Shown: positions 18,216 to 59,871, numbered from the stretch's first letter. The stretch: DNA of 64,000 nucleotides from a virus (IMGVR_UViG_3300029928_000002:91302-155301), one strand, 5' to 3'. Made by a program: numbers and translations. Notes: generated from the sequence alone by a model not told the origin.

Positions 18216-20452
18216 TATGTCGGTAAATTCCCTTCTTTATCCAGAGACAAATCTCCAGGAAGAGGTAATTTATCACAAAAAGGTTTAGCACCCTCTTTCA
18301 TACATTTTAATAATACCTTGGCGACTTTATCTGCTATATTATTAGGAGCTTCTATGTTCCATTCGTCATGAGCAGGTATGCAGAACTTTACTTTATGTAG
18401 CAAATCGTTCTTAACTACCCAGTTAAATAGGAACAAGGAAGCTAATTTAAAGCAACAGGCACCTCTATTTTGTATTCTATAATTTATAGACTGCTTTTCT
18501 AGAGTCTTTTTTCGCTTTTTATAATATTTAAAATCATCCATTAATACAGGATCTTCTCTAAACATTTTCCAGAAGTTATGGTCTTGCATTTCTTTCTGAA
18601 TTTTGGATAATCTATCCCAATCATAAGCAAATGCTTTAGCTCCAGTAATATTATTCATTTGAATATAGCCTCTTTCCATAACATCCTTTTTACAGTACCT
18701 CTGATATGTTTCCATACCAGGAAAACCTTTCATATAATTATCATATACCTTCTTGGCTTCTTCCAAAGGGATTCCTTTGTTATTAGCTATGGTGTTTTCA
18801 TCACCACCGTAGTTGATAGCAAACTCTACTCCCTTAGCATCTTGTCTGAGGTCATGATATTTCTTCTTGATCTCTTCAATCTTAGTATCTCTAGGTATTA
18901 AATGTGGATATGACATATATGCTACTAGAGAATGTATGTCTTTGCATCCCTCAGTGAATATTTTTATCATAGCATCATCGCCTGTTACAGACGCAATAAT
19001 ACGTGATTCTTGACCCTCATAGTCCACCGAGAGCCACTTATTACCTTCTTCACTAATAAAGCATGCTCTAGTCTCTGCATCCTTCGGTAATTGCTGTAGA
19101 TTCACTCCTCCTTTAGTTCCACCACAGGACATTCTGAATGTATCGGCCCCTATAGGATTAAAGTCAGCATGAATCCTACCATCTTCCTTAGTTACATTAC
19201 TAATAAAGTTTTGCCCGAATGCTTCACATACTTTAGCTGCTTCTTTATAATTCACATATAATTCTGCAATAGAAGATATATTCTTTTGAGCTTCTATAAT
19301 CTTTTTATCTGCAGATTTCTTGTGCATCTTAGTCTTCTTATCAATAGTATCAAGATTAAATCCCAATAATTCAAATAAAGGAATTACTTGACTACTACTA
19401 GACCAGTTGATAACACATTTATCTCCAAATTCTAAAGCTACTGGATTGAATAAATCTTGTTGTATTGTATTTATATGTTGTACATAAGGATTGAATTTAT
19501 CTCTTAAGGTATATCCAAATGGAATTTTATAAACTCCATATGTCTTAAATCCATATTTATCATCAGGGACTTGTTCAATTTCTCCATCTTCGTATTTAAC
19601 CCCAAAGAGTCTTTCAACATCTACAAATTTTAAATCAGATGGAATATTTTGATCGTCTCTATGGATAAATTGTGTGTCAAGGAGGGCTTTATATTCTATT
19701 TTTCCCCTACTTCCATTATGCTCTTTATAATATTTTACTATCCAGTCATTTAGTGCTTTTAACCATTTATCTCTTCTGGCATTATCTTTAATCATTTTCT
19801 TTTTCCATCTATCAACATCTAGTTTTACACCATCCAGTTTTATTTTACCTACTACAATTGTAAACTTAGATTCAAAGTCAGCAGCTTTCTTAACATGATA
19901 TTTAATTAATTCTTTCTGCTGAGCTTTATAAATCGGAATGGAATATTTAACATCTGTTGCTGAATAAACTATAGTTCTTTCAGTTAAACCTTTAGTAATG
20001 ATTTCACCTCTAGCTGTTTTATCCATATCATAGTCACAATATTTCTTTGCACATGTTTTCAATGATACAGAATACATATCTCTAGGTTTACCATTATTAA
20101 GGACTCTTTCACCTATCAAAGTATCAAAATAGTTCTTCTGCACAATTCCTACTTGTAGTAGCCATTGACTATCAAAGCAATAATTATGCCACACATATAG
20201 TATATTAGGATTCTCTAACAGCTCCTTCAACATTATTAGAGGATAGCTTAGACAATCCCATACTATTTGATCTTGTTCATCTCCAAGCTGAATAGATAAT
20301 ATTTTCTTAGTAACAGGATTCAATCCTTGAGTTTCAGTATCTGCTCCTAATATTGTTTTCTTAGATAGTAAAGCTATAGCTTCTTCTGGAGGTATTACTG
20401 TATACTTATCAGATTTAAATAAAGTTTGCTCCCTACTTACTAAATAAATCAT
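18203..20452 (-). CDS. polA: DNA polymerase family A with 3'-5' exonuclease
   Basis: DTET, HNYCFD, DYEGQESRI, RQDAKGVEFAINYG, NYRIQ and HDE motifs. Confidence 0.95.
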   Translation of the reverse strand: MIYLVSREQTLFKSDKYTVIPPEEAIALLSKKTILGADTETQGLNPVTKKILSIQLGDEQDQIVWDCLSYPLIMLKELLENPNILYVWHNYCFDSQWLLQVGIVQKNYFDTLIGERVLNNGKPRDMYSVSLKTCAKKYCDYDMDKTARGEIITKGLTERTIVYSATDVKYSIPIYKAQQKELIKYHVKKAADFESKFTIVVGKIKLDGVKLDVDRWKKKMIKDNARRDKWLKALNDWIVKYYKEHNGSRGKIEYKALLDTQFIHRDDQNIPSDLKFVDVERLFGVKYEDGEIEQVPDDKYGFKTYGVYKIPFGYTLRDKFNPYVQHINTIQQDLFNPVALEFGDKCVINWSSSSQVIPLFELLGFNLDTIDKKTKMHKKSADKKIIEAQKNISSIAELYVNYKEAAKVCEAFGQNFISNVTKEDGRIHADFNPIGADTFRMSCGGTKGGVNLQQLPKDAETRACFISEEGNKWLSVDYEGQESRIIASVTGDDAMIKIFTEGCKDIHSLVAYMSYPHLIPRDTKIEEIKKKYHDLRQDAKGVEFAINYGGDENTIANNKGIPLEEAKKVYDNYMKGFPGMETYQRYCKKDVMERGYIQMNNITGAKAFAYDWDRLSKIQKEMQDHNFWKMFREDPVLMDDFKYYKKRKKTLEKQSINYRIQNRGACCFKLASLFLFNWVVKNDLLHKVKFCIPAHDEWNIEAPNNIADKVAKVLLKCMKEGAKPFCDKLPLPGDLSLDKEGNLPTYWIH

Positions 20453-21321
20453 AACAATTCTTTTAAAGTTTTTCTAAAATATTTCTTTAATTTTATAATA
20501 GCTCTAAGTTTGGTCTGCCTAATACATTCTGTAGACTTGTGATACTTTTCACAGAGATTTTTAAGATACTTAGATTCGTTATTTGGATCAGAAAATCCAT
20601 AATAATCTAATACTATATCTCTTTCTATCTTTGTGAAATATTTACTATTTAATATATTCAAAATAACTTCTCTTTTATTTTTATGTTCTGCAGAAGTATC
20701 TGTAGAATCTACATTATTATTTGGTATAGCTTCTATAATAAGAGGAGCATCCGAATCTGAAGAGGTTGAAGTATCTAAAGATGTATAATTAATATCAGAA
20801 TTTAAAGCATTTTCTAATTGAGGTAATGTACATCTACATAGTTTAGCAAGCTCTTCATCTGTTGGTGCTTCTCCATGTTTTTGAATATACTCTTGTCTAT
20901 ATTTATTAATTCTATATTGTATTTCAACAGGGCCTTGTGCAATTCTAATAGTTCTAGATTTATTAGTAAGAGCTTTGGTAATACATTGACGCATCCACCA
21001 CAAAGCATATGTAATAAATCTATAACCTAGATCGACATTCCACCTTTCTGCTGCTCTACAAATTCCTGCATTTGCTTCAGCTATTAAATCTTCCAAAGGT
21101 AATCCTCTACCTTGATAATGTTTTGCAACAGTTACCGCAAATCTTAAATTGGAATTTATAAGTTTTCGTCGGGCTTTCATATTACCACGCTTACTTAATT
21201 GTCCAATATATCTTTCTTCATCTTTCGTAAGTAATTTATATCTAGATATGTCATGTAAATAATCTTTCAAAGAACGAGAATATATATTAGTAATACTTGG
21301 TGCTGTGGTAATTTGTCTCAC
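20449..21321 (-). CDS. Sigma-70 family sigma factor
   Basis: YLHDI..LLT..EE, LINSNLRFA..VAK.Y, DLI.E.N.G, RFITYALWWMRQ; region 4 ECIRQ. Confidence 0.9.
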   Translation of the reverse strand: MRQITTAPSITNIYSRSLKDYLHDISRYKLLTKDEERYIGQLSKRGNMKARRKLINSNLRFAVTVAKHYQGRGLPLEDLIAEANAGICRAAERWNVDLGYRFITYALWWMRQCITKALTNKSRTIRIAQGPVEIQYRINKYRQEYIQKHGEAPTDEELAKLCRCTLPQLENALNSDINYTSLDTSTSSDSDAPLIIEAIPNNNVDSTDTSAEHKNKREVILNILNSKYFTKIERDIVLDYYGFSDPNNESKYLKNLCEKYHKSTECIRQTKLRAIIKLKKYFRKTLKELL

Positions 21322-31702: not shown

Positions 31703-31795
31703 ATAAATAACATTAAAAAATTAACAGTATTATCTAATATACCAGAATTTAGTATACTAAACAATACTGTTAATATAGAAATATAATAAGATTTT

Positions 31796-35504: not shown

Positions 35505-35657
35505 AATTTTAAAACTTATTTACATTAAACATTAAAATATTATCTATCAAATCATAATAAATTATTATCTATTCACTAATTGCGTTTGAATTAGTAAATC
35601 CAATATATACGGAAATATTATCTATCCAACAAAAATATTTGTTAAAATCTGTTAATT

Positions 35658-49075: not shown

Positions 49076-49695
49076 AATAATACTAAATTACTTCCCTTAA
49101 CTGCCAATTTATCAGCTTCATTATTAAACTTATTATCAGCATGACCCTTTACCCATTGAATGGAATATTTTAAATCATGTTGTTTTAACAGATTGATATA
49201 TGTATCAAACTTATCCCATAATGCTGTATTACATTTTCTCTTCCAACCTTGAGTAGCACATCCCCATACATATTGAGAATCAGTATAAATAGTAGCAGAT
49301 ATTTTATTCTTAATAATATATATCATTGCCTTTAATACTGCAAATAATTCCATTTTATTATTGGAATCTACTTTGGCCCCATTATAGTCAGAATAAAGTA
49401 TATCATTATCTTTTACTACCACATAAGCCCAACCTCCCCGATTTACAGAAGGTCTAAAAGCTCCGTCTGTATAAATACAGATAGAGTCTTTATTAGTTAT
49501 TTCTGCAGTAGGTATAGATAATTTCTTACCACATATAGGACAATAACTTATAGGAATATGATTTGTAATATGTACAAGCATATTAACTGTTTCGGAGCAA
49601 ATGCTTGGCACATTATCATATATAGATATTCCCAAATCCCCATTTAATATATTCATTTTAGGATATTTGGGGATATTGTCACAATATTTACACAT
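49072..49695 (-). CDS. rnhA: Ribonuclease HI with N-terminal Zn ribbon
   Basis: IYTDGA, NNKMEL, TDSQY and WVKGH..N.EADKLA motifs; CKYC..CPICG. Confidence 0.9.
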   Translation of the reverse strand: MCKYCDNIPKYPKMNILNGDLGISIYDNVPSICSETVNMLVHITNHIPISYCPICGKKLSIPTAEITNKDSICIYTDGAFRPSVNRGGWAYVVVKDNDILYSDYNGAKVDSNNKMELFAVLKAMIYIIKNKISATIYTDSQYVWGCATQGWKRKCNTALWDKFDTYINLLKQHDLKYSIQWVKGHADNKFNNEADKLAVKGSNLVLL

Positions 49696-49852
49696 TATAA
49701 TTTAATAATTATATGATTTCTTCTAGTTCTATCAAATGGTGGTGTATAATAAATAAAGATAGAATTATTTTCCTTAAAGATTGATGGATTAAATACTACT
49801 TTAACTAGTAAGAATATTATTATAATAAAAATAACTATGTTCAACATAAGAT

Positions 49853-50659
49853 TTAATAATTAATACCGTCTTTAAAGTATGTTACATAGAACTTATTTGG
49901 TCCATATACTTTAAAGATTCTAGAGGTAGTTTTAAAATAACACTTAGAAGTTTTATCTTCAGTAGCTGCTCCTCTTGAATAGTTTGTTATATTTGAAACC
50001 CAGAATTTATTGTCAATATACTTATAATTAGTACTATCATTAGAGAAATTATAAGCTATTCTATTAGAGAATGTATATGGAGTGTCCTGTTCTGTGTATG
50101 ATTTAATTTTATAAGATTCTGAGGGAAAATCTTGTTTGCTAGTACATGTAACTGTCAAAGATGGGCTTAATTTGTAAGTATTAAACTCTTTATAGCATTT
50201 TGCAGGAATACATACAATTTCTTTTTCTATTGTGTATGTATTTACAGTATTAACAGTTTGAGTTTTACTTCCAAGTAAGGCTAAGAATATATTATTTCCC
50301 CAAATATTACCAGCAGTAGTACTTATAGAATTAGCCGCTGAAGACGAGTAAATCCTATTCCTAAAATATTCATTCGCCTTACCGTTAACTTCATAAAAAG
50401 TCTTTGCCAAATTTATGTATATATCTTTATCCGTCTTATTCCATATTACAAACTTCAATTCTCCATTATTTGACCATAGATTATAAAGAACTTTACAATC
50501 ATCATTTTCATAAACCATCGAGTTATCCTGTAATTTCAAATCCTTACTTTCAACATCATAAACTTGATAGAATGTTTTATTACAAGATGAAAAACACACT
50601 GCAGCAAAAGCAGCCACTAAAATTTTGTTAAATTTCATAAGACTAATTAAATGATGCAC
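49853..50659 (-). CDS. Bacteroidales-type lipoprotein
   Basis: Signal peptide ending FSSC; likely start near MKFNK. Confidence 0.75.
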   Translation of the reverse strand: MHHLISLMKFNKILVAAFAAVCFSSCNKTFYQVYDVESKDLKLQDNSMVYENDDCKVLYNLWSNNGELKFVIWNKTDKDIYINLAKTFYEVNGKANEYFRNRIYSSSAANSISTTAGNIWGNNIFLALLGSKTQTVNTVNTYTIEKEIVCIPAKCYKEFNTYKLSPSLTVTCTSKQDFPSESYKIKSYTEQDTPYTFSNRIAYNFSNDSTNYKYIDNKFWVSNITNYSRGAATEDKTSKCYFKTTSRIFKVYGPNKFYVTYFKDGINY

Positions 50660-50864
50660 TTAAATACTTTACAACGCAACCTACAATAATAAATAGTATT
50701 ATTATAGTAACCCAACCAGAATTTTCTTCTTTGTCCGAACATTCGTTGTAAGCAGCAAGTGCGAGAATTATTATAAGAACTATTAAAGCAATCATATTAT
50801 CTATATAAACTAAAAATCCTTGATTACTAAGCATATACTTAATAACCAAGGATTGTTGTTAATA

Positions 50865-51023
50865 TTAATGTAGAGAATCTACAACGCTAGAATCTGTGTC
50901 AACTGAATCAACTACAGTAGTATCTGAATCAGCTGAAGATTGTTTTGAACTTGACGAACCTTCAGTACAACTCATAAGACCAAAAGTCATCATTGCTGCA
51001 AAAATAAAGATTAACTTTTTCAT
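50865..51023 (-). CDS. 52-aa Ser/Asp-rich lipoprotein
   Basis: MKKLIFIFAAMMTFGLMS-CTEGSSSSKQSSADSDTTVVDSVDTDSSVVDSLH. Confidence 0.75.
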   Translation of the reverse strand: MKKLIFIFAAMMTFGLMSCTEGSSSSKQSSADSDTTVVDSVDTDSSVVDSLH

Positions 51024-51157: not shown

Positions 51158-51715
51158 TTATACTAAATCTTTTAATTTATCTGTATAACTAGGATCTTCT
51201 GCATAACCTATCTTATTTAAAAAGGTATAATAATTTCCTCCAGAATATTTAGACTGAATTAAATTCTTATAGGCTTTAACACTTTCTGTCCAATGCCCAA
51301 ATCGTCTATACCTTTTGCCTTTTCTTAATCCAAATAAATTGTTAGTACTTGTAGCTACATCAGATTTGCCTAAATTACTTTCTAACTTAGCTTGTGCTAA
51401 AACAATATTTGGATATTTAATATTCTGTCTTATTAATTCTTTTTTTAAATTTTTTTCAGTTAATGGTAATTTACTAATTTCTACTTTTGAATTAGATTTA
51501 TTCTTTACTTTAAATGTTGAATTTTTAATAGTATTAGAATCACTTTTGATAATAAGTTCTATTTTAGTTGGAGTGGATACTTTAGATTTCTTAGGAACTG
51601 AATGTCCTATAAGATAACCTATAAATAATCCTGAAACTAAAATAGTACTTAATTTCCAATAATCTGATTTCTTAGAATTAATACTATCTACTGTGTGAAA
51701 TAATTTTACATCCAT
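51158..51715 (-). CDS. Membrane-anchored glucosaminidase (GH73-like)
   Basis: AQAKLES, NNLFGL and GYAEDPSY motifs; N-terminal TM. Confidence 0.88.
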   Translation of the reverse strand: MDVKLFHTVDSINSKKSDYWKLSTILVSGLFIGYLIGHSVPKKSKVSTPTKIELIIKSDSNTIKNSTFKVKNKSNSKVEISKLPLTEKNLKKELIRQNIKYPNIVLAQAKLESNLGKSDVATSTNNLFGLRKGKRYRRFGHWTESVKAYKNLIQSKYSGGNYYTFLNKIGYAEDPSYTDKLKDLV

Positions 51716-52782: not shown

Positions 52783-53394
52783 TTAATCATAAAATAATAT
52801 ATCTTTTAACGAACCCTTATTAAAATCCAGTACTTTTCCATTAACTTCGTCTAAAGACTGTTTAATTTTTCCAATTTTCAAATCAGGGCTTGAAGCTGAA
52901 ATCCAAAATTTATTTGGAACCAATACTCTTAATTTAGAGTATTCTATTACATCGCAATAAATTATTGGATAAGTCCCATATTCTTTATAAAATAAGGTAT
53001 TTAATTCCTTGAGGATTTTTATGCGAGTTTTGAAATCTTTTTTAAATCCGGCTCTTTCGTAATCTACACAAGGAATTAAACTTAAAGACATATTACTTTG
53101 AGCTTCTTCATAATTAGTAAATTGAGATTTAGCAGACACATTATCTCTAAAGAAATGATAAGTACCTACATACATATTATGTCGAACTGCTTGTTCGTAA
53201 TGTTCATATCTCATAGGATCTTTGTAAGAACTTCCTTCTGAGACTTTTAAATACACAAACTTAATATTCCTGGACTTTAACTGTGTCCAATCACTACCGT
53301 TTAATTCATTGTGGTGTGATAAATCTACACCTTTATCAGTACAGTTAGTACAACTACCTAAAATTAAACTAAGTAGAATAATTAATGTTCTCAT
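52783..53394 (-). CDS. GH25 muramidase with lipoprotein signal
   Basis: GVDLSHH, KVSEG, GTYHF, VDYE and PIIY motifs; LILGSC. Confidence 0.9.
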   Translation of the reverse strand: MRTLIILLSLILGSCTNCTDKGVDLSHHNELNGSDWTQLKSRNIKFVYLKVSEGSSYKDPMRYEHYEQAVRHNMYVGTYHFFRDNVSAKSQFTNYEEAQSNMSLSLIPCVDYERAGFKKDFKTRIKILKELNTLFYKEYGTYPIIYCDVIEYSKLRVLVPNKFWISASSPDLKIGKIKQSLDEVNGKVLDFNKGSLKDILFYD

Positions 53395-53398
53395 AATT

Positions 53399-54016
53399 TT
53401 AAAATATTATCTTTCTGTCATTATACTTATTATTATAAACTACTCCACTATTAGAGGTATCATTTTTGTCATTTATTCCAGAAGTTAATCTACCTCTATT
53501 CCAGTATATATTATTAGCTTCTTCAGTTGTCATAGGAGTTCCGCCTTTCCAAGTATAGTTATTCTTCATAGACTTTCTATTTTCATCTAATTTAATTACA
53601 GTAGCTTGGCCCTATTTAAAGTTAGAATCTTTTAAAGTCTAATCATTTATTCCATACCTAGAATATCTAGCATTTAACTATTTTTGAGCCGGAATTATCT
53701 TTATTTGAGACAATCCTCTCGATATAGGCATAGTCTTTCCTCTAACTATGTTCTAAATAGCCTGCAACATCCAATCAGGCATAGCCGATTTTACTTTGTA
53801 TCTAACACTAGTACCATTCTTACTTTCAACTCCTGTAATATTAACTGCTTGTCTACTTAAATCTGCCCATTGAGAATCTGATATTCCCCTTTCCTTCATA
53901 ATATCATTTCTCAGACTATTAACCCCTTCTATATAATCGTGTAACTATTTATTTCCTCTATTAGGGTTTATTGCAGTTACAGTAACTTCCGGAATACTAT
54001 ATATTGTATCATTCAT
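53399..54016 (-). CDS. Lytic transglycosylase/lysozyme-like protein, 205 aa, TAG recoded
   Basis: Open from ATG 54016 to TAA 53399 with 5 TAGs; ITGVES, SRGLSQIK and YWNRG motifs. Confidence 0.75.
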
Positions 54017-54924
54017 AATCCTAAAAATCCTAGACCTAATAATCCTTTCTTATCTGTACTTGGAGGTTCTTTTTTATCTGAATCCTATTTTTTATCAGGA
54101 TGCCATTTAACTGCTCCTGCATCATATATAGCAGTAATACCATATTTATTAGGATTACTTCTACCACCTAACACATCAGAAACAGGATTATTTAATATGG
54201 TTCCATGAATATTATGTCCCACCATCCACTGATTACCATTATTATATAATACTCCTGTATGAGTTCCTGGTGTTTGGGTATTTTCATCTAAAGATTTTCT
54301 ATAAAACTCTTCCATGTGTGGAGAAGTATTATAATACATATTAACTGGATACATATGCCATTTCTAAAGAATTGTGGTATCAAGATCTTTCTTTACTTCG
54401 TCAGCAGCTTCTCTATGATAATTCATAATCTAAGCTCTGGAAGCCCCTCTCTAAAAATGTATTCCATCATATCCATTAATTACAGGACTATAATGTCTAC
54501 CTACTTGATAAGCATCACCACCAGCATTAATACCATTATTCCTCATCCATGTATTACTAAATGTAGCACATTCTAGAGTTTTATTTCCAAGTCTATCTAC
54601 AGGAGTAGAAGGTATTTGAATATCTTTAGTATAATTCTACCAAGCCTATTCACTTTGAGGACCCCAGTCTCCATCAACAGCTATTTTATAACCAGCTTTA
54701 ACTAATTCCTACTGACGCTACCTAATTTTATCTGGATCATACCCATATCCATGCTTAGCTATCAGTCTTCTATCTTTATCTATTTTTTGCTGTCTATTAG
54801 TATCCCATCTTTTTTGAGTTCTAGATATTAACTGTGTAGTTTTCTTCACACCTCTCTATATAGCTTTCTACAAAATTTGCTATTGGAGTGTTTTTTTATT
54901 TATGGGTTTTGTATAATCTGTCAT
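54013..54924 (-). CDS. Peptidoglycan-binding plus CHAP/NlpC-like hydrolase, 303 aa, TAG recoded
   Basis: 11 TAGs; IR(Q)RQ(Q)ELVKAGYKIAVDGDWGPQSE(Q)AW; ECATF..GDAY..HTGVL; ATGA overlaps at both ends. Confidence 0.8.
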
Positions 54925-55367
54925 AATTTCTTAAATTGAGAATATGTGTGATTCAATATTATTGGTTTATTATTTTGAGAATTAAGTTCAGGAGTTCCAT
55001 CTTCTTTAAGTATCTTAATTTTACAGAAAGAGTTTCTCACTTCCTCAATAATTCCAATTTTATTAATGTCATCTGCATGGGTAGAAATAATCTTTACCTT
55101 ATCTCCTACAGCATAATTCTTATAATTCTTATGAGATTTAAGTTTGGGAGGAGGCAAAGTTCCCTCATTAATACATTTTACAACTTTAGAAGCAGATTCT
55201 TCAAGAATACTAATTAACTTCTTGTTATTCTGTACAGAAATAAATAAGTCAGTAAGTTGATTTATCTTACAAATATCTTTTACTTCTAAATCTGGATATT
55301 GATTTATAATATCTCGTGTGACGCTATTACTGTGAGTAATAATATTATGTAGCTTCTTATTTTTCAT
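54921..55367 (-). CDS. Hypothetical protein with KOW/SH3-like C-terminus
   Basis: VGDKVKII...IGIIEEV. Confidence 0.65.
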   Translation of the reverse strand: MKNKKLHNIITHSNSVTRDIINQYPDLEVKDICKINQLTDLFISVQNNKKLISILEESASKVVKCINEGTLPPPKLKSHKNYKNYAVGDKVKIISTHADDINKIGIIEEVRNSFCKIKILKEDGTPELNSQNNKPIILNHTYSQFKKL

Positions 55368-55369
55368 TA

Positions 55370-56032
55370 TTAATACATTTGTTCTAAAGTAAATCTAAAT
55401 GCTTTATTAAATTCTTCATAAGAAGATTTGGTAGGTTTGATGAATTTATTATGTTTAAAAATATCTTCAATCCTTCGATCTTCTCTGAGAATATCTAAAA
55501 CCTTTCTATCTTCTATCCAAGAATTTACATATATAAAAGTAGCATCGAGTTTGGAAGGAGTTGTTTTAGATACTCCATGAATTTTAATATAACAAAATAT
55601 TGGTTCAAACCATTTTTCTTGTTCTTCTTTAGATAGCTTGAGGATTTCTTTAAGACTTTTATCAGTATTCTTTATCTGATGAATTGCCCTTAAAGTAATA
55701 TAAGATACTGGAAAATTCCACTTCTCTTTAGAGAGCGGAAATTCTGGGTCTAACGCAAATACATTTGCTAATACTATAATAATATGTTCATCAGCTACAT
55801 TATAACAATGTATTGCTAAAGATTGACCTTCAGAGTCATTTAATAGTTTCCAATTATCTACTGTATATGGAATAACAGCAACATAACTATAAAGAGAAAC
55901 TTTACCATATTCTGTATCCTTTGTAAAGTCAGAAGATTCTAATATATGAAATACAGTATTGTTAGGAACTATTACTTCCTCCACTTGGCTCACATAAGCC
56001 CATCTATAAATTTTATACTTTTTCATAACCAT
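55370..56032 (-). CDS. Hypothetical protein
   Basis: 220-aa ORF. Confidence 0.7.
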   Translation of the reverse strand: MVMKKYKIYRWAYVSQVEEVIVPNNTVFHILESSDFTKDTEYGKVSLYSYVAVIPYTVDNWKLLNDSEGQSLAIHCYNVADEHIIIVLANVFALDPEFPLSKEKWNFPVSYITLRAIHQIKNTDKSLKEILKLSKEEQEKWFEPIFCYIKIHGVSKTTPSKLDATFIYVNSWIEDRKVLDILREDRRIEDIFKHNKFIKPTKSSYEEFNKAFRFTLEQMY

Positions 56033-56243
56033 TTCATTATTTCTTTTTCATTAAGATAAATAATAGTTCCAAAGCATTTGCGCTTAACTTCTTCATCAGT
56101 GACTAGATTTTCAACTTCTTCATATAATATACATTGAAGCTGTTTGAAATCTTGTACATAACGCTTTTCTTTAATTACATTTTTAATAACTGCTGTCAAT
56201 ACAGTAACTGTCATAATATAATATTAAATTAGTAAAACAATTG

Positions 56244-56315
56244 TAACCCATAGCAGAATCGAACTGCTCTTTCTAGAATGAAAATCTAGTGTCCTAACCG
56301 ATAGACGAATGGGCT
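56244..56315 (-). tRNA. tRNA-Glu(TTC)
   Basis: Cloverleaf; anticodon arm ctaga-ttTTCat-tctag; GTTCGA T-loop. Confidence 0.9.
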
Positions 56316-56374
56316 AAGATAGTAAACTATCTTCACAGACCGTTTACTATAAATATAAATGAAGTATTTTTATA

Positions 56375-57433
56375 TTATTCTACTGTTACAACTCTATTTG
56401 TATTAAGTTGGTCTGGATTAAACTTATTAGTTTCTCCAAGACCTGAAACCTCAATCTTGTCTTCTGGTACACCAGCTTTTACAAGAAGTTTCTTCACTGC
56501 TTCAGCTCTCTTAAGAGAAAGTGCTTTATTATACTTAGTTGTACCTTCTGTAGAAGCATAGCCAGTAATCTTGATAGTACCATCAATATTCTTAAGTGAA
56601 TCTGCAATATCATAGATATTAGCCATAGAAGTTTCTGTTACTTTAGCAGAACCCTGCAAGAACTGAACCTTAGGATAGATATATTTAACAACTTCCTTAG
56701 ATTTAGCATTCTTAAGAACTTCGATAGTAGCATTTGCATTATCAAGATCTTTCTTCAAATCATTAATCTTGCTATTTAGACCGTCAATCTCATTCTGGTC
56801 ATAGAGCTTAGCTTTCTTAAAACTTGAAGTGCCATTAGAGGTATTAAAGTGGTATACAAGACCTGCAGTTACTTCAAAACAGCCGTTATTCAAGGCTCCA
56901 TTATGCATATCATTCCATACAACTGAAGGATTTACTACAATTGCAAAGTTTCTAGAACTACCAAGATTAAAGTTAAACTCAGTGCCTGCCCTAAAAGTCA
57001 TCCAGTTGTTGTTTGGATAAGCATTCTGATGTCCCCATCCAAGACCAGTATAAATTACTGGTTCAAAAAGATGTCTTCTACCTGAATAAGCAAAAGCATT
57101 TGCAAGATTTGCCTTTAAATAGCCAGAAATATTAATATAGTCAAAAGTTTTGTAAGTATTTCCTACGTTGTTTTTAGTAAGAATTAATGAACGACCGTCA
57201 ATTCCAAAACCAAATACTGGAGTAATATATTTATCAACCCCAATTACAAATGTTGGAAATATATTAGCAGTACTTGCGTAAAAATCGGAAAATGGAGTTG
57301 TTACACCTCCCTGAACTGTAACACTTACATTATCTGTAAATTTAGAACTACCGCTGTAATTAGATTGTGTTTGAGCATTTGCATTAAAGAAAGTTGCAAG
57401 TGCTATTGCCATACTAAAAATAAACTTTTTCAT
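56375..57433 (-). CDS. OmpA-family outer membrane protein
   Basis: Signal peptide, beta-barrel ending AGLVYHF, coiled coil, GYAS.EG..N..LS.KRA..V OmpA-C motif. Confidence 0.9.
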   Translation of the reverse strand: MKKFIFSMAIALATFFNANAQTQSNYSGSSKFTDNVSVTVQGGVTTPFSDFYASTANIFPTFVIGVDKYITPVFGFGIDGRSLILTKNNVGNTYKTFDYINISGYLKANLANAFAYSGRRHLFEPVIYTGLGWGHQNAYPNNNWMTFRAGTEFNFNLGSSRNFAIVVNPSVVWNDMHNGALNNGCFEVTAGLVYHFNTSNGTSSFKKAKLYDQNEIDGLNSKINDLKKDLDNANATIEVLKNAKSKEVVKYIYPKVQFLQGSAKVTETSMANIYDIADSLKNIDGTIKITGYASTEGTTKYNKALSLKRAEAVKKLLVKAGVPEDKIEVSGLGETNKFNPDQLNTNRVVTVE

Positions 57434-57491
57434 AAAACATTTTAATATTTAATTACTAATATCATCTTTTATTTTTATTATTATCTAATAG

Positions 57492-57564
57492 TTGGACTAC
57501 CAAGACTTGAACTTGGAATATCAGAACCAAAATCTGAAGTGTTACCTATTTACACCATAGTCCA
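57492..57564 (-). tRNA. tRNA-Gln(TTG)
   Basis: Anticodon arm tcaga-ttTTGgt-tctga; acceptor tggacta/tagtcca. Confidence 0.9.
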
Positions 57565-57567
57565 AAG

Positions 57568-57703
57568 TGCTTCTGCAAAACCTGCCCGGAAAATCAGAAG
57601 CGTTGTCTTGTACTTCGACATTTATTTCCCCTATGTTGACGGACAAGGGCTTAAACCGGTCTACTCCCTATCGGTCGGTAGACCGGACCGCCAGTACTGC
57701 TAT
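57568..57703. ncRNA. Candidate three-hairpin RNA between tRNAs
   Basis: gcttctg/cagaagc, cttgt..gacat/atgtt..acaag and ccggtctac/gtagaccgg stems. Confidence 0.5.
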
Positions 57704-57733
57704 CTTAGATAACATATTCTACTGGATTATAAG

Positions 57734-57807
57734 TGGTTTAGATGAGACTCGAACTCATAACTTACGCTTTAGAAGAGCGTTACTCTATCCAATTGAGTTA
57801 CTAAACC
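57734..57807 (-). tRNA. tRNA-Arg(TCT)
   Basis: Anticodon arm acgct-ctTCTaa-agcgt. Confidence 0.9.
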
Positions 57808-57817
57808 ATCAATATTG

Positions 57818-57902
57818 TAGCTTTAGGGGGATTCGAACCCCCACGTTCCTTACGGAACATCAGATTTTAAGTCTAATATGTCTACCAATTCCATCATAAA
57901 GC
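57818..57902 (-). tRNA. tRNA-Leu(TAA)
   Basis: Anticodon arm ttaga-ctTAAaa-tctga; long variable arm. Confidence 0.9.
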
Positions 57903-58127
57903 CTTATATTGAAGGAAGATTATGTAAATAAATAAGCATACTAATAATCTTATGCATTTATAAAGATTATTTAATTCCTAATCATTTATAAAAAGATTAT
58001 TTTTTGCTCTATTATATTTACCTCATACATTCGCGAACTGTTGAGTAATCTTCCTTCTTATTTTTAGTAAAACTAATATAAATATACTTTTCTTTTTACA
58101 TTTAAAAATTTATATTTTTTAAGTTTA

Positions 58128-58421
58128 TTATTTTACATTCCATTTTATCGCAATTACATTGTATGGAGAAGTAATAGTACCAACTTTAAAACCTCTACCT
58201 TCTAATTCTTTAGTAAGATTAGGAATAGATACTTCTGATGGAATATTTGTAATTGTCATGTGATCTATACCTAATTTAGAATTGTTGTATATTTCAGTAT
58301 TGAGTTTATTGTGGAAAGATTTAACAATATCTTCTCTGCTGCAAGGTTTGTTATATTTTGCCATCATTGCAGCAGATTCCTCAGTCATTTGAGGAATCTG
58401 ATGTTTTTTAAAAAATCTCAT
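58128..58421 (-). CDS. Hypothetical protein
   Basis: ORF in operon. Confidence 0.65.
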   Translation of the reverse strand: MRFFKKHQIPQMTEESAAMMAKYNKPCSREDIVKSFHNKLNTEIYNNSKLGIDHMTITNIPSEVSIPNLTKELEGRGFKVGTITSPYNVIAIKWNVK

Positions 58422-58777
58422 AAATAAATAATTTCTCCTAATATATATACTTTATAATTGAAATATTTTGAATATGGGTCAAATGATTGAAGTTCCATTA
58501 AAGCACTTTTAACAGTTGACCAATATCCAGAACTGTTGTAAGCAATTACATAGTAATTACCTTCATCATTATAAGTATATTTTAGTTTGACAGTATGCCA
58601 ACCATCATATCTTTTTACATATCCAGTAGTTATAAATATTGGATTCTTTCTTATGGGCTGCTTTCTAATTACTTTAGAAGAATTTGTTACTGGATCATAT
58701 CTAGATAAGAATGGGTCTATCTGAGCACTAATAGTAAGTGTGCTCAGAAGAAGAATGAATAGTAATAACTTTTTCAT
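58418..58777 (-). CDS. Secreted hypothetical protein
   Basis: MKKLLLF..ISA-Q signal peptide typical of Bacteroidota. Confidence 0.7.
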   Translation of the reverse strand: MKKLLLFILLLSTLTISAQIDPFLSRYDPVTNSSKVIRKQPIRKNPIFITTGYVKRYDGWHTVKLKYTYNDEGNYYVIAYNSSGYWSTVKSALMELQSFDPYSKYFNYKVYILGEIIYL

Positions 58778-58917
58778 TTATTTTCTCTACCACTTCTAGT
58801 TGATATATATCTTACATCAGCTTGATTACCAAGCCTATTATATTCCGTGCTTCCAAATAAGCACATTTCATAACCATCTCGTATATCCATAATATTATCT
58901 ATTTTTTTTTATTAGTA

Positions 58918-59367
58918 TTATTTATTATGCTTAGGATTCTTGTATATAATTCTAAGATAGCAACTAAATGTAACTGGGTCTATAGATTCCCATTCTGTGA
59001 TTTTATTAGAATCTATTTCTTTTGCGTCTTGAGCAAGAGCTAAGGTTATATGCTTAGTCTTGCTTGTAGAGGGTGTGATGATGTTAGAACTATTCTTACA
59101 TTCAGATACTCTAAGTGCTATGATATTATCAGCTTTACTAATACCGTCAATAGTAATCATATGAGGCTGTTCATTATTATTAAGAACATATCTCATATCC
59201 TCTATTGGAATATTGTTAAATCTGAAGATAGTCATATGTGGATAATTTATCTGGCGATAATTCTCTTTCTTAGTAAAATCTTCTGGAATAAATGTTCTAA
59301 TCTTGTCCAGTTCTTTGTCTGAAATAAAGATACCTGCGTACAAAATGCGATTAATTTTCTGTGCCAT
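58918..59367 (-). CDS. 2H phosphoesterase family protein
   Basis: Two HxT motifs: PHMTI and KHITL. Confidence 0.75.
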   Translation of the reverse strand: MAQKINRILYAGIFISDKELDKIRTFIPEDFTKKENYRQINYPHMTIFRFNNIPIEDMRYVLNNNEQPHMITIDGISKADNIIALRVSECKNSSNIITPSTSKTKHITLALAQDAKEIDSNKITEWESIDPVTFSCYLRIIYKNPKHNK

Positions 59368-59373
59368 AGTTTT

Positions 59374-59871
59374 TTAAATGTTAGATATTGTTTTAAAGTA
59401 ATTACGTTCTCTTTCTGCTAGTTTGAAGTATTTGTACATATCTGCAACAATACAATCTTCTGTGAGAATTCTTGAATCTAAAGTTTTCTCGTAATACTTA
59501 GAAAATATACTTGTTGCAGATTTTTTGCAAATGTAGTTACAAAGATTAAACAATGCTGTATAAAGCTGTTTGTAAGCTTTAACTTTAGTTATCTTCTTAC
59601 CAAGTTCTTCATTGTAAGTATCTACAACTCTACAAGTAGTACCACCGATTACAGTTATATCCATTGAATCATTCTGGATGTCACTTCTAAAGTTTTCATT
59701 ACTATACTGTTTAGCCCAATCTATAACATATTGTATATAATGCTTTGGGAAACTGACTTGAGTACTAAGATAGCAGCCTGTAATAGGACCAAGCTCTTCA
59801 AAAAGGAAAGAGGGTTTAGTAAAATTAATCATAGTTTTTAAATATTTGGTGAATATATAAGTTCTCTCCAA
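59374..59871 (-). CDS. Hypothetical protein (same motif family as 48253)
   Basis: GGTTCRVVDTYNEELGKKITKVKA. Confidence 0.65.
   Translation of the reverse strand: MERTYIFTKYLKTMINFTKPSFLFEELGPITGCYLSTQVSFPKHYIQYVIDWAKQYSNENFRSDIQNDSMDITVIGGTTCRVVDTYNEELGKKITKVKAYKQLYTALFNLCNYICKKSATSIFSKYYEKTLDSRILTEDCIVADMYKYFKLAERERNYFKTISNI

Follow-up and report, generated by a model that had tools for sequence, protein, structure and literature searches.

Gut phages that read TAG as Gln in their late and lysis modules have been described in several studies (Ivanova 2014; Yutin 2021, PMC7886860; Borges et al.; Peters 2022, PMC9523058). In these phages, replication genes keep the standard code, structural and lysis genes are recoded, a tRNA-Sup(CTA) is encoded close to the recoded strand's 5' end, and coupling of late proteins to the code switch is the proposed role. 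Borges et al. (bioRxiv 10.1101/2021.08.26.457843) argued that recoding serves to coordinate the late genes and to keep lysis from starting too early, lysis genes being preferentially recoded. They described the structural and lysis genes of crAss-like phages as one contiguous recoded unit, with multi-module layouts in other clades, and reported a recoded endonuclease within an early gene. According to the Mgcod paper, the code switch follows the strand switch. Here we describe a recoded island that occupies positions 53399–54924 of a 64,000-nucleotide stretch of viral DNA (IMGVR_UViG_3300029928_000002:91302-155301, referred to below as the window) and comprises two genes, each encoding a candidate cell wall hydrolase. 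The phage record is 155,301 bp long and ends with the window; coordinates are those of the window unless they are given as genome positions.

The phage is like these recoded gut phages in reading TAG as Gln, in the placement of its tRNA-Sup(CTA), in its standard-code replication genes and recoded structural and lysis genes, and in the role proposed for the switch. It is unlike them in that the recoded unit is a 1.5-kb pair of genes that shares the strand of standard-code genes, which border it on both sides with an overlap or a 4-nt gap. The code switch does not coincide with a strand switch, as the island shares its strand with its TAG-free neighbors. Standard-code and recoded genes likewise adjoin each other in Jade phages, where a code-change module lies beside recoded lysis genes, and in Agate phages, whose recoded intron endonuclease, inside an early gene, is also a recoded gene embedded in an early region (Borges et al.). 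However, both cases come from other clades and a TGA code, whereas here wall hydrolases have standard-code genes on both sides, and the suppressor tRNA is ~17 kb from the island across the record ends, if the genome is circular. The mechanism we consider is thus the published hypothesis, and the locus adds no new mechanism. It is a further, finer-grained example and an exception to the strand rule, in which the published scheme is seen at single-gene resolution within a same-strand gene run.

Under translation table 11, positions 53399–54924 give nothing but open reading frames (ORFs) of less than 90 amino acids, and the stretch looks non-coding, as an earlier first-pass annotation, made by a model from the sequence alone, had pointed out. 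Retranslation with TAG read as Gln yielded two intact genes on the minus strand. Gene 1 (54013–54924) encodes 303 amino acids with 11 in-frame TAGs, and gene 2 (53399–54016) encodes 205 amino acids with 5. The 508 island codons therefore hold 16 TAG, 0 TAA, and 0 TGA codons in frame, and the coordinates and TAG counts of the first-pass annotation were all correct. The ATGA overlaps it had reported are also in the sequence. At 54921–54924, the TGA of an upstream 148-residue gene overlaps the ATG of gene 1, and at 54013–54016 a second ATGA couples gene 1 to gene 2. A TAG-free GH25 muramidase gene starts 4 nt past the TAA of gene 2. Without suppression, translation would end at codon 15 in gene 1 and at codon 24 in gene 2.

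The TAG sites were compared with the CAA/CAG sites in alignments with orthologues. In gene 1, the cells occupied by Gln or TAG in orthologues number 22 of 62 at the TAG sites, against 23 of 68 at the CAA/CAG sites; the corresponding values for gene 2 are 18/25 and 19/30. TAG and CAA/CAG also interchange between orthologues at the same columns. Because the two kinds of site pair with Gln or TAG equally often, TAG behaves like one more Gln codon, and the possibility raised with the original annotation, that homologues might lack Gln at the TAG sites, is not borne out. Full-length homologues occur in public assemblies, and every close one that was traced to DNA needs TAG read as Gln. In GenBank phages, DNA and tblastn searches matched neither the region nor either protein, and IMG/VR scans with the single island proteins gave no confirmed locus.

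The non-coding appearance under table 11 would also suit decaying pseudogenes or an assembly artefact. This explanation was rejected and is left with next to no probability, because the frames are broken by TAG alone and never by TAA or TGA, near-identical island proteins occur on several independent contigs, and the ratio of nonsynonymous to synonymous substitution rates (dN/dS) relative to orthologues is 0.12–0.33 (dS of ~0.8–1.1, and 2.1 in the most distant pair). The island genes are intact, functional genes under purifying selection in which TAG encodes Gln.

The TAG distribution over the rest of the genome sets the island apart from its surroundings. Marker matches and the crassvirus structural Pfam families on a further locus (L018), which carries a distant homologue of gene 2, agree that the phage is crAss-like. 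Its GC content is 29%, and the first 50 bases of the record recur at position 155171, so that the ends overlap by ~130 bases. ARAGORN located a tRNA-Sup(CTA) at genome 7564–7636, with U1-A72 as the first acceptor pair. A plus-strand block at 15–99 kb holds TerL (18 TAGs), the portal gene (28 TAGs), a tail protein, and giant proteins. The recoded late block has 570 TAGs in 27,322 codons, with TAG making up 2.1% of codons in structural genes. The minus-strand block (window 8155–60553), which contains the island, encodes NrdD, PolA, DnaB, a ligase, helicases, an IMPDH-like enzyme, and a sigma-70-family factor. Its 83 non-island ORFs (15,629 codons) have no internal TAG; TAGs in these ORFs are restricted to their edges, as real stops or before the likely start, or to one doubtful short ORF. 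This bears out the earlier statement that the flanking genes on the same strand are free of TAG. By our own arithmetic, the chance that 16 TAGs scattered at random over 16,137 codons would all land in the island's 508 is ~1e-24. Codon usage, with Gln and stop codons excluded, scarcely separates early from late genes, and the island is therefore not assignable to either class by this means.

We propose that the island encodes two late-class muralytic proteins whose production is bound to UAG decoding by the phage tRNA-Sup(CUA), and we assign this reading a probability of roughly 70%. Island mRNA could be made at any time, and full-length protein would be produced only while tRNA-Sup(CUA) decodes UAG as Gln; since there are 16 in-frame UAG codons, full-length protein would need the active suppressor. 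Island output would be tied in this way to the translational state of the capsid, portal, terminase, and holin-like/endolysin genes. Most probably the two proteins have a late muralytic activity, either at lysis or packed for entry. Three parts of this scheme we infer, namely the temporal control of suppression, the co-transcription with neighboring genes, and the enzymatic activity. Several points weigh against it. That suppression comes late is an assumption taken from the literature; the phage has its own sigma factor, so an internal island promoter may exist; Pfam catalytic-domain models match neither island protein; the fold match of gene 2 is no better than Z 5–6; and TAG makes up 0.47 of the island's Gln codons, close to the median of 0.43 among late genes (p = 0.49), so that additional selection for TAG is not indicated.

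The border between recoded and TAG-free genes is conserved. In eight relatives (L006, L008, L009/L010, L012, L014, L015, L016, and L019), one or more recoded genes are followed directly by a TAG-free GH25 gene. The recoded genes contain 16 and 6 TAGs in L006; 15 and 9 in L008; 15 and 6 in L014; 6 and 6 in L016; 8, 9, and 5 in L009/L010; and 8, 12, and 6 in L012. L015 has one recoded gene with 5 TAGs, and in L019 a gene 1-gene 2 fusion holds 6. The upstream neighbors vary among the relatives and include a tRNA-Ile or tRNA-Leu 95–174 nt upstream, a Trans_reg_C gene, or DUF6939. No suppressor tRNA was found beside the island in the relatives, the adjacent tRNAs being those for Ile, Leu, and Arg. 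In six aligned GH25 orthologues (50–82% identical), none of the 27 Gln codons is TAG, for which the probability at the island's TAG share would be ~4e-8 by our own arithmetic, although the orthologues are not independent of one another. The GH25 alignments of L006 and L008 end at a TAG, which we take to be the stop. Because the GH25 orthologues are TAG-free and two of them apparently end in TAG, TAG appears to change its meaning inside a single gene run, encoding Gln in one gene and being avoided, or used as stop, in the next. Suppression at these two GH25 genes (L006:9564-10271 and L008:9609-10238) would add a C-terminal extension of 5–31 amino acids before the next stop.

The code-switch-as-timer hypothesis rests on genome-scale correlations of large blocks, and this locus offers a compact natural test of it. 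Three adjacent genes on one strand have a conserved border, sharp to 4 nt, between TAG read as Gln and a gene without TAG (with TAG apparently as stop in relatives), and this border is kept across relatives whose island genes are merely 35–85% identical to those of the window. Annotators that work by blocks will miss islands of such a size; Mgcod, for example, merges any block shorter than three 5-kb windows, so that they lie below its resolution.

Gene-by-gene differences in code were also observed elsewhere among the relatives. On a single strand of L019 (L019:4478-11302), recoded and standard genes are interleaved in the order 384 amino acids (10 TAGs), 101 (0), 427 (7), 187 (0), the fused hydrolase (6), GH25 (0), and 207 (3). 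A TGA-recoded locus (L011:8001-8606) encodes a 201-residue homologue of the gene 1 catalytic domain, whose sole Trp codon is a TGA at the invariant Trp of the family; nearby genes hold 6 and 9 TGAs.

The TAG statistics bear on a different explanation, in which the TAGs are no lock. The proteins would be needed late only, perhaps through an internal late promoter, and because of this CAG-to-TAG transitions would never have been removed in this AT-rich genome, the TAG density recording the time of use. We regard this as possible but rather doubtful. The island's TAG share is the same as that of the late genes, TAG and CAA/CAG are freely swapped between orthologues, and the first TAG lies where it typically does in late genes. 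The first-pass annotation had emphasized that three TAGs fall in the first 23 codons; they are indeed at codons 15, 19, and 23 of gene 1, but the median first TAG of the phage's 47 late genes is codon 23, and a first TAG at codon 15 is therefore ordinary. The variable upstream neighbors, the 95–270-nt gaps that precede the island in several relatives and could hold a promoter, and the sigma factor encoded by the phage also agree with a passive origin. Against it, there is no upstream gap in the window, where the ATGA overlap abuts the island, and no promoter-like motif was found close to where the island begins, either here or upstream of it in those relatives that were examined. Moreover, whatever their origin, the TAGs block translation without suppression.

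The promoter searches behind this statement gave the following results. A sigma-70 consensus scan found 90 sites where 77 were expected, which is background level, and the Bacteroides -7 motif TAnnTTTG has no match on the minus strand at 53400–59535, which leaves ~4.6 kb upstream of the island start without one. The motif (A/T)TAGATAAT(A/T) is overrepresented between genes, with 16 of 67 AGATAATA matches in the non-coding 5% of the genome, and it precedes gene starts by 30–120 nt in both code classes (window sites at 31735, 35545–35623, 57486, and 58900). This enrichment and position make it a candidate promoter element. The nearest intergenic TAGATAAT copy upstream of the island is that at 57486, before an OmpA-like gene; none occurs in the 260 nt before the island here, nor in the stretches of up to 360 nt that were examined before it in relatives. 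Separately, a GTAGAATA motif common to the island upstreams of L006, L008, and L012 was discarded, as it is not promoter-like in the window genome. The sigma-70-family factor gene (20449–21321, minus strand) is TAG-free and matches Sigma70_r1_2, r2, and r3; L016 has one too. Such a factor could drive middle or late transcription, so promoter types beyond those scanned for are possible. The gene packing suggests a single operon, and it is from this packing alone that we infer co-transcription with early genes.

The first-pass annotation had proposed a stronger form, an adaptive gene-by-gene lock that silences especially toxic enzymes within a putative early transcript. The tight, operon-like packing with TAG-free genes agrees with this proposal, as does the code boundary kept in eight relatives. 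In L008 a third recoded hydrolase, a Peptidase_M15_3, lies just upstream of the pair, and Borges et al. argue that recoding prevents premature lysis. On the other hand, a hydropathy scan detected no hydrophobic N terminus or export signal in either island protein; such enzymes should need a holin to get to the wall and should do no harm in the cytoplasm. By contrast, the GH25 lipoprotein and an anchored glucosaminidase, hydrolases with export signals, are TAG-free, and the phage has separate recoded holin-like and GH108 genes. TAG is also not in excess of that in other late genes. The case for a lock on toxic enzymes is weak, and we consider it unlikely.

The separate holin-like and GH108 genes form a pair at genome 8264–9051, within 1 kb of tRNA-Sup(CTA) and on the opposite strand. 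A GH108 + PG_binding_3 endolysin gene (3 TAGs) there adjoins a holin-like gene encoding 92 amino acids with 2–3 transmembrane (TM) segments (3 TAGs), and a 415-residue SLT-containing protein (13 TAGs) is encoded near the endolysin gene. A search for a TM protein beside the island, as in a holin-endolysin cassette, found none; the nearest 2-TM ORF is at 50643–50849.

The linkage of gene 2 to GH25 bears on yet another scheme, in which ribosome release at codon 15 would bare 1.5 kb of mRNA, and Rho-type polarity or lost coupling would silence the GH25 cluster until suppression. In its favor, this linkage is invariant, the two genes being either 4 nt apart or joined by an ATGA overlap, whereas the genes upstream of the island differ. 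However, GH25 has no TAG in the six aligned orthologues and apparently ends in TAG in two, which suggests that it is translated while TAG still means stop, and we think such a polarity gate very improbable.

Next, we considered what the two proteins might be, using fold matches obtained with VIA-align wide together with profile searches. The AF2 model of gene 1 has a predicted local distance difference test (pLDDT) score of 87 and shows a predicted N-terminal helix at residues 10–58 (49 residues), a weak PG_binding_1-like module at ~60–100, and a papain-fold domain at 101–277. Residues 101–277 match NlpC/P60/CHAP hydrolases with Z 8.7–6 and a root mean square deviation of ~3 Å over 100–127 residues (~30 top rows). 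Cys-119 and His-237 are invariant in 23 gene 1 homologues; in the model, Cys-119 opens helix 119–129 and His-237 lies in strand 233–239. No member of this 23-protein family matches Pfam NLPC_P60 or CHAP at E up to 1. PG_binding_1 (PF01471) gives 14.9 bits for the window copy, below the gathering cutoff of 23, and matches 16 of the 23 family members at E up to 1, with a best value of 9.5e-6. When the family profile was searched against PDB sequences, the PG-binding region of 4xxt was matched weakly (E 0.016), and nothing beyond this was found. In that alignment the Gln of the solved chain stands opposite Q71, which is encoded by CAA/CAG and not by TAG; the claim that TAGs fall at Gln-consensus sites of the PG-binding domain is therefore not supported by this single solved domain. 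Taken together, gene 1 encodes a candidate NlpC/P60-type cysteine endopeptidase with a weak peptidoglycan-binding match.

Two features of gene 1 were seen outside this domain assignment. A Gly-rich hydrophobic C-terminal tail, GLLGLGFLGL (window 54013–54045), is kept in four of the five closest gene 1 copies. The gene 1 variants of L009 and L012 have no PG-binding module and show an internal Gly-zipper-like hydrophobic segment instead.

The model of gene 2 has a pLDDT of 73. Its fold matches include a GH23 chitinase, DslA, Slt70, MltC, and MltE at Z 6.3–5, among unrelated helical proteins. Glu-64, which closes helix 47–65, is invariant in 19 gene 2 homologues, and none of these 19 family members matches Pfam SLT at E up to 1. 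A lysozyme/SLT-like (GH23-type) glycosidase is thus a plausible but not firm assignment for gene 2. Foldseek against the PDB returned nothing at E ≤ 0.001 for either model, and neither island protein attains a Pfam threshold. The hidden Markov model check proposed with the first-pass annotation (table 15 translations against PG_binding_1, CHAP, and SLT) gave no match for SLT or CHAP/NlpC_P60 and only the sub-threshold PG_binding_1 score. Its claim of cell wall hydrolase products is supported, as the fold matches and the PG_binding_1 family scan make the products look muralytic. In the natural proteins P0063 and P0069, a single chain spans the equivalents of both genes.

Modular endolysins from phages that infect Gram-negative bacteria, with an N-terminal PG_binding_1 domain, resemble gene 1 in layout. 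Both phiKZ gp144 (PDB entry 3bkh) and gene 1 place a PG-binding module, weakly matched in gene 1, ahead of the catalytic domain and lack a signal peptide, and 3bkh is among the fold matches of gene 2 (Z 4.3). Unlike in phiKZ gp144, the catalytic domain of gene 1 is NlpC/P60-like and not SLT, and no holin adjoins the gene; this phage also has another endolysin gene beside its holin-like gene.

A role in the virion is a serious alternative to one in lysis. The two proteins could correspond to the muralytic module of crassvirus cargo protein C1, here in free-standing form, and be packed into the virion for entry; their late code would follow from being made together with the virion. We give this somewhat less than an even chance. 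A gene 2 profile collected 285 representatives, many of which carry the domain within proteins of 500–2,200 amino acids. YkuD was found in six of eight long hits that were scanned, five of those six also having LysM. P0087 bears an additional phage tail lysozyme domain. P0123 combines LysM, YkuD, a gene-2-like domain, and crAss_CARG1; it comes from a standard-code crassvirus, in which its gene is flanked by those for the muzzle and cargo-2. In crAss001, C1 (gp45) is a packaged and ejected virion protein (Bayfield et al. 2023, PMC10172136). Several properties of the phage point the same way: the existence of separate recoded holin-like and GH108 endolysin genes, giant late proteins of its own in which no Pfam wall-hydrolase domain was found, the lack of a signal peptide in either island protein by the hydropathy scan, and the Gly-rich hydrophobic tail of gene 1 or the internal such segment in L009 and L012.

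Other observations disfavor an entry function. The island is far from the structural module; its surroundings are envelope and accessory genes, and its link to the exported GH25 is tight. Neither a CARG1 nor a portal-binding domain was found in the island proteins; a crAss_CARG1 search of the phage's own genome gave no match, controls included, and is hence uninformative. A PG-binding module joined to a catalytic domain is a classic endolysin layout as well. The island proteins are like C1 in that the gene 2 domain is homologous to an internal domain of P0123, and unlike it in being small and free-standing, without CARG1, on the other strand, and far from structural genes. Given the absence of CARG1 and the distance from structural genes, they are not C1 itself. 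A wall hydrolase domain that is otherwise found within crassvirus cargo protein C1 is here a free-standing gene.

These elements can be combined in a bolder scheme, in which a single polycistronic mRNA of the early strand would be sorted into early and late proteins purely by code, the island representing detached muralytic modules of the crassvirus cargo or ejection apparatus that would be produced only once suppression has begun, and GH25, next on the same message, being both made and terminated under the standard code. We consider this scheme improbable. If it were true, gene-level code mosaicism would be a general regulatory layer in this lineage, for which the interleaving in L019 may be compared.

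Returning to the window, the neighboring genes lie on the minus strand and are TAG-free. The GH25 muramidase gene (52783–53394) encodes a lipoprotein-type signal peptide. Upstream of the island are the 148-residue gene (54921–55367) and a 220-residue gene (55370–56032), neither with a family match, the latter containing a TAGATAAT motif at 55859. An OmpA-family protein with a signal-like N terminus is encoded at 56375–57433, the TAGATAAT copy at 57486 falling in its upstream gap. The anchored glucosaminidase-domain protein (51158–51715) has one N-terminal hydrophobic segment. A tRNA-Glu(UUC) gene (56243–56315) lies 1.3 kb upstream of the island, and a cluster of tRNA-Gln(UUG), tRNA-Arg(UCU), and tRNA-Leu(UAA) genes occupies 57491–57903, also on the minus strand; an Rfam scan over 50.5–59 kb returned four tRNAs and nothing else. 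Downstream of the island, the ORFs of an envelope cluster (49695–51023, minus strand) are all TAG-free, save for TAG as a stop. Its members are the small 2-TM ORF noted above, a 52-residue lipoprotein-like ORF (50865–51023), a 268-residue lipoprotein-like protein (49853–50659), and a 50-residue single-TM ORF.

Finally, two further exceptions to the local code were seen. In L008, a 378-residue gene (L008:2975-4111) that is helix-turn-helix/LAGLIDADG-like holds seven TAGs amid TAG-free genes and resembles the recoded homing endonuclease of Borges et al. Outside the window, genome 15936–18160 (plus strand) is a mirror exception, with genes of 644 and 95 amino acids that have 0 TAGs within the recoded plus-strand block. 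The 644-residue product has sub-threshold PD-(D/E)XK and LAGLIDADG matches, and PHROG terminase-like and primase-like matches cover its residues 196–539; the true TerL, with its 18 TAGs, is encoded at genome 21115–23532.

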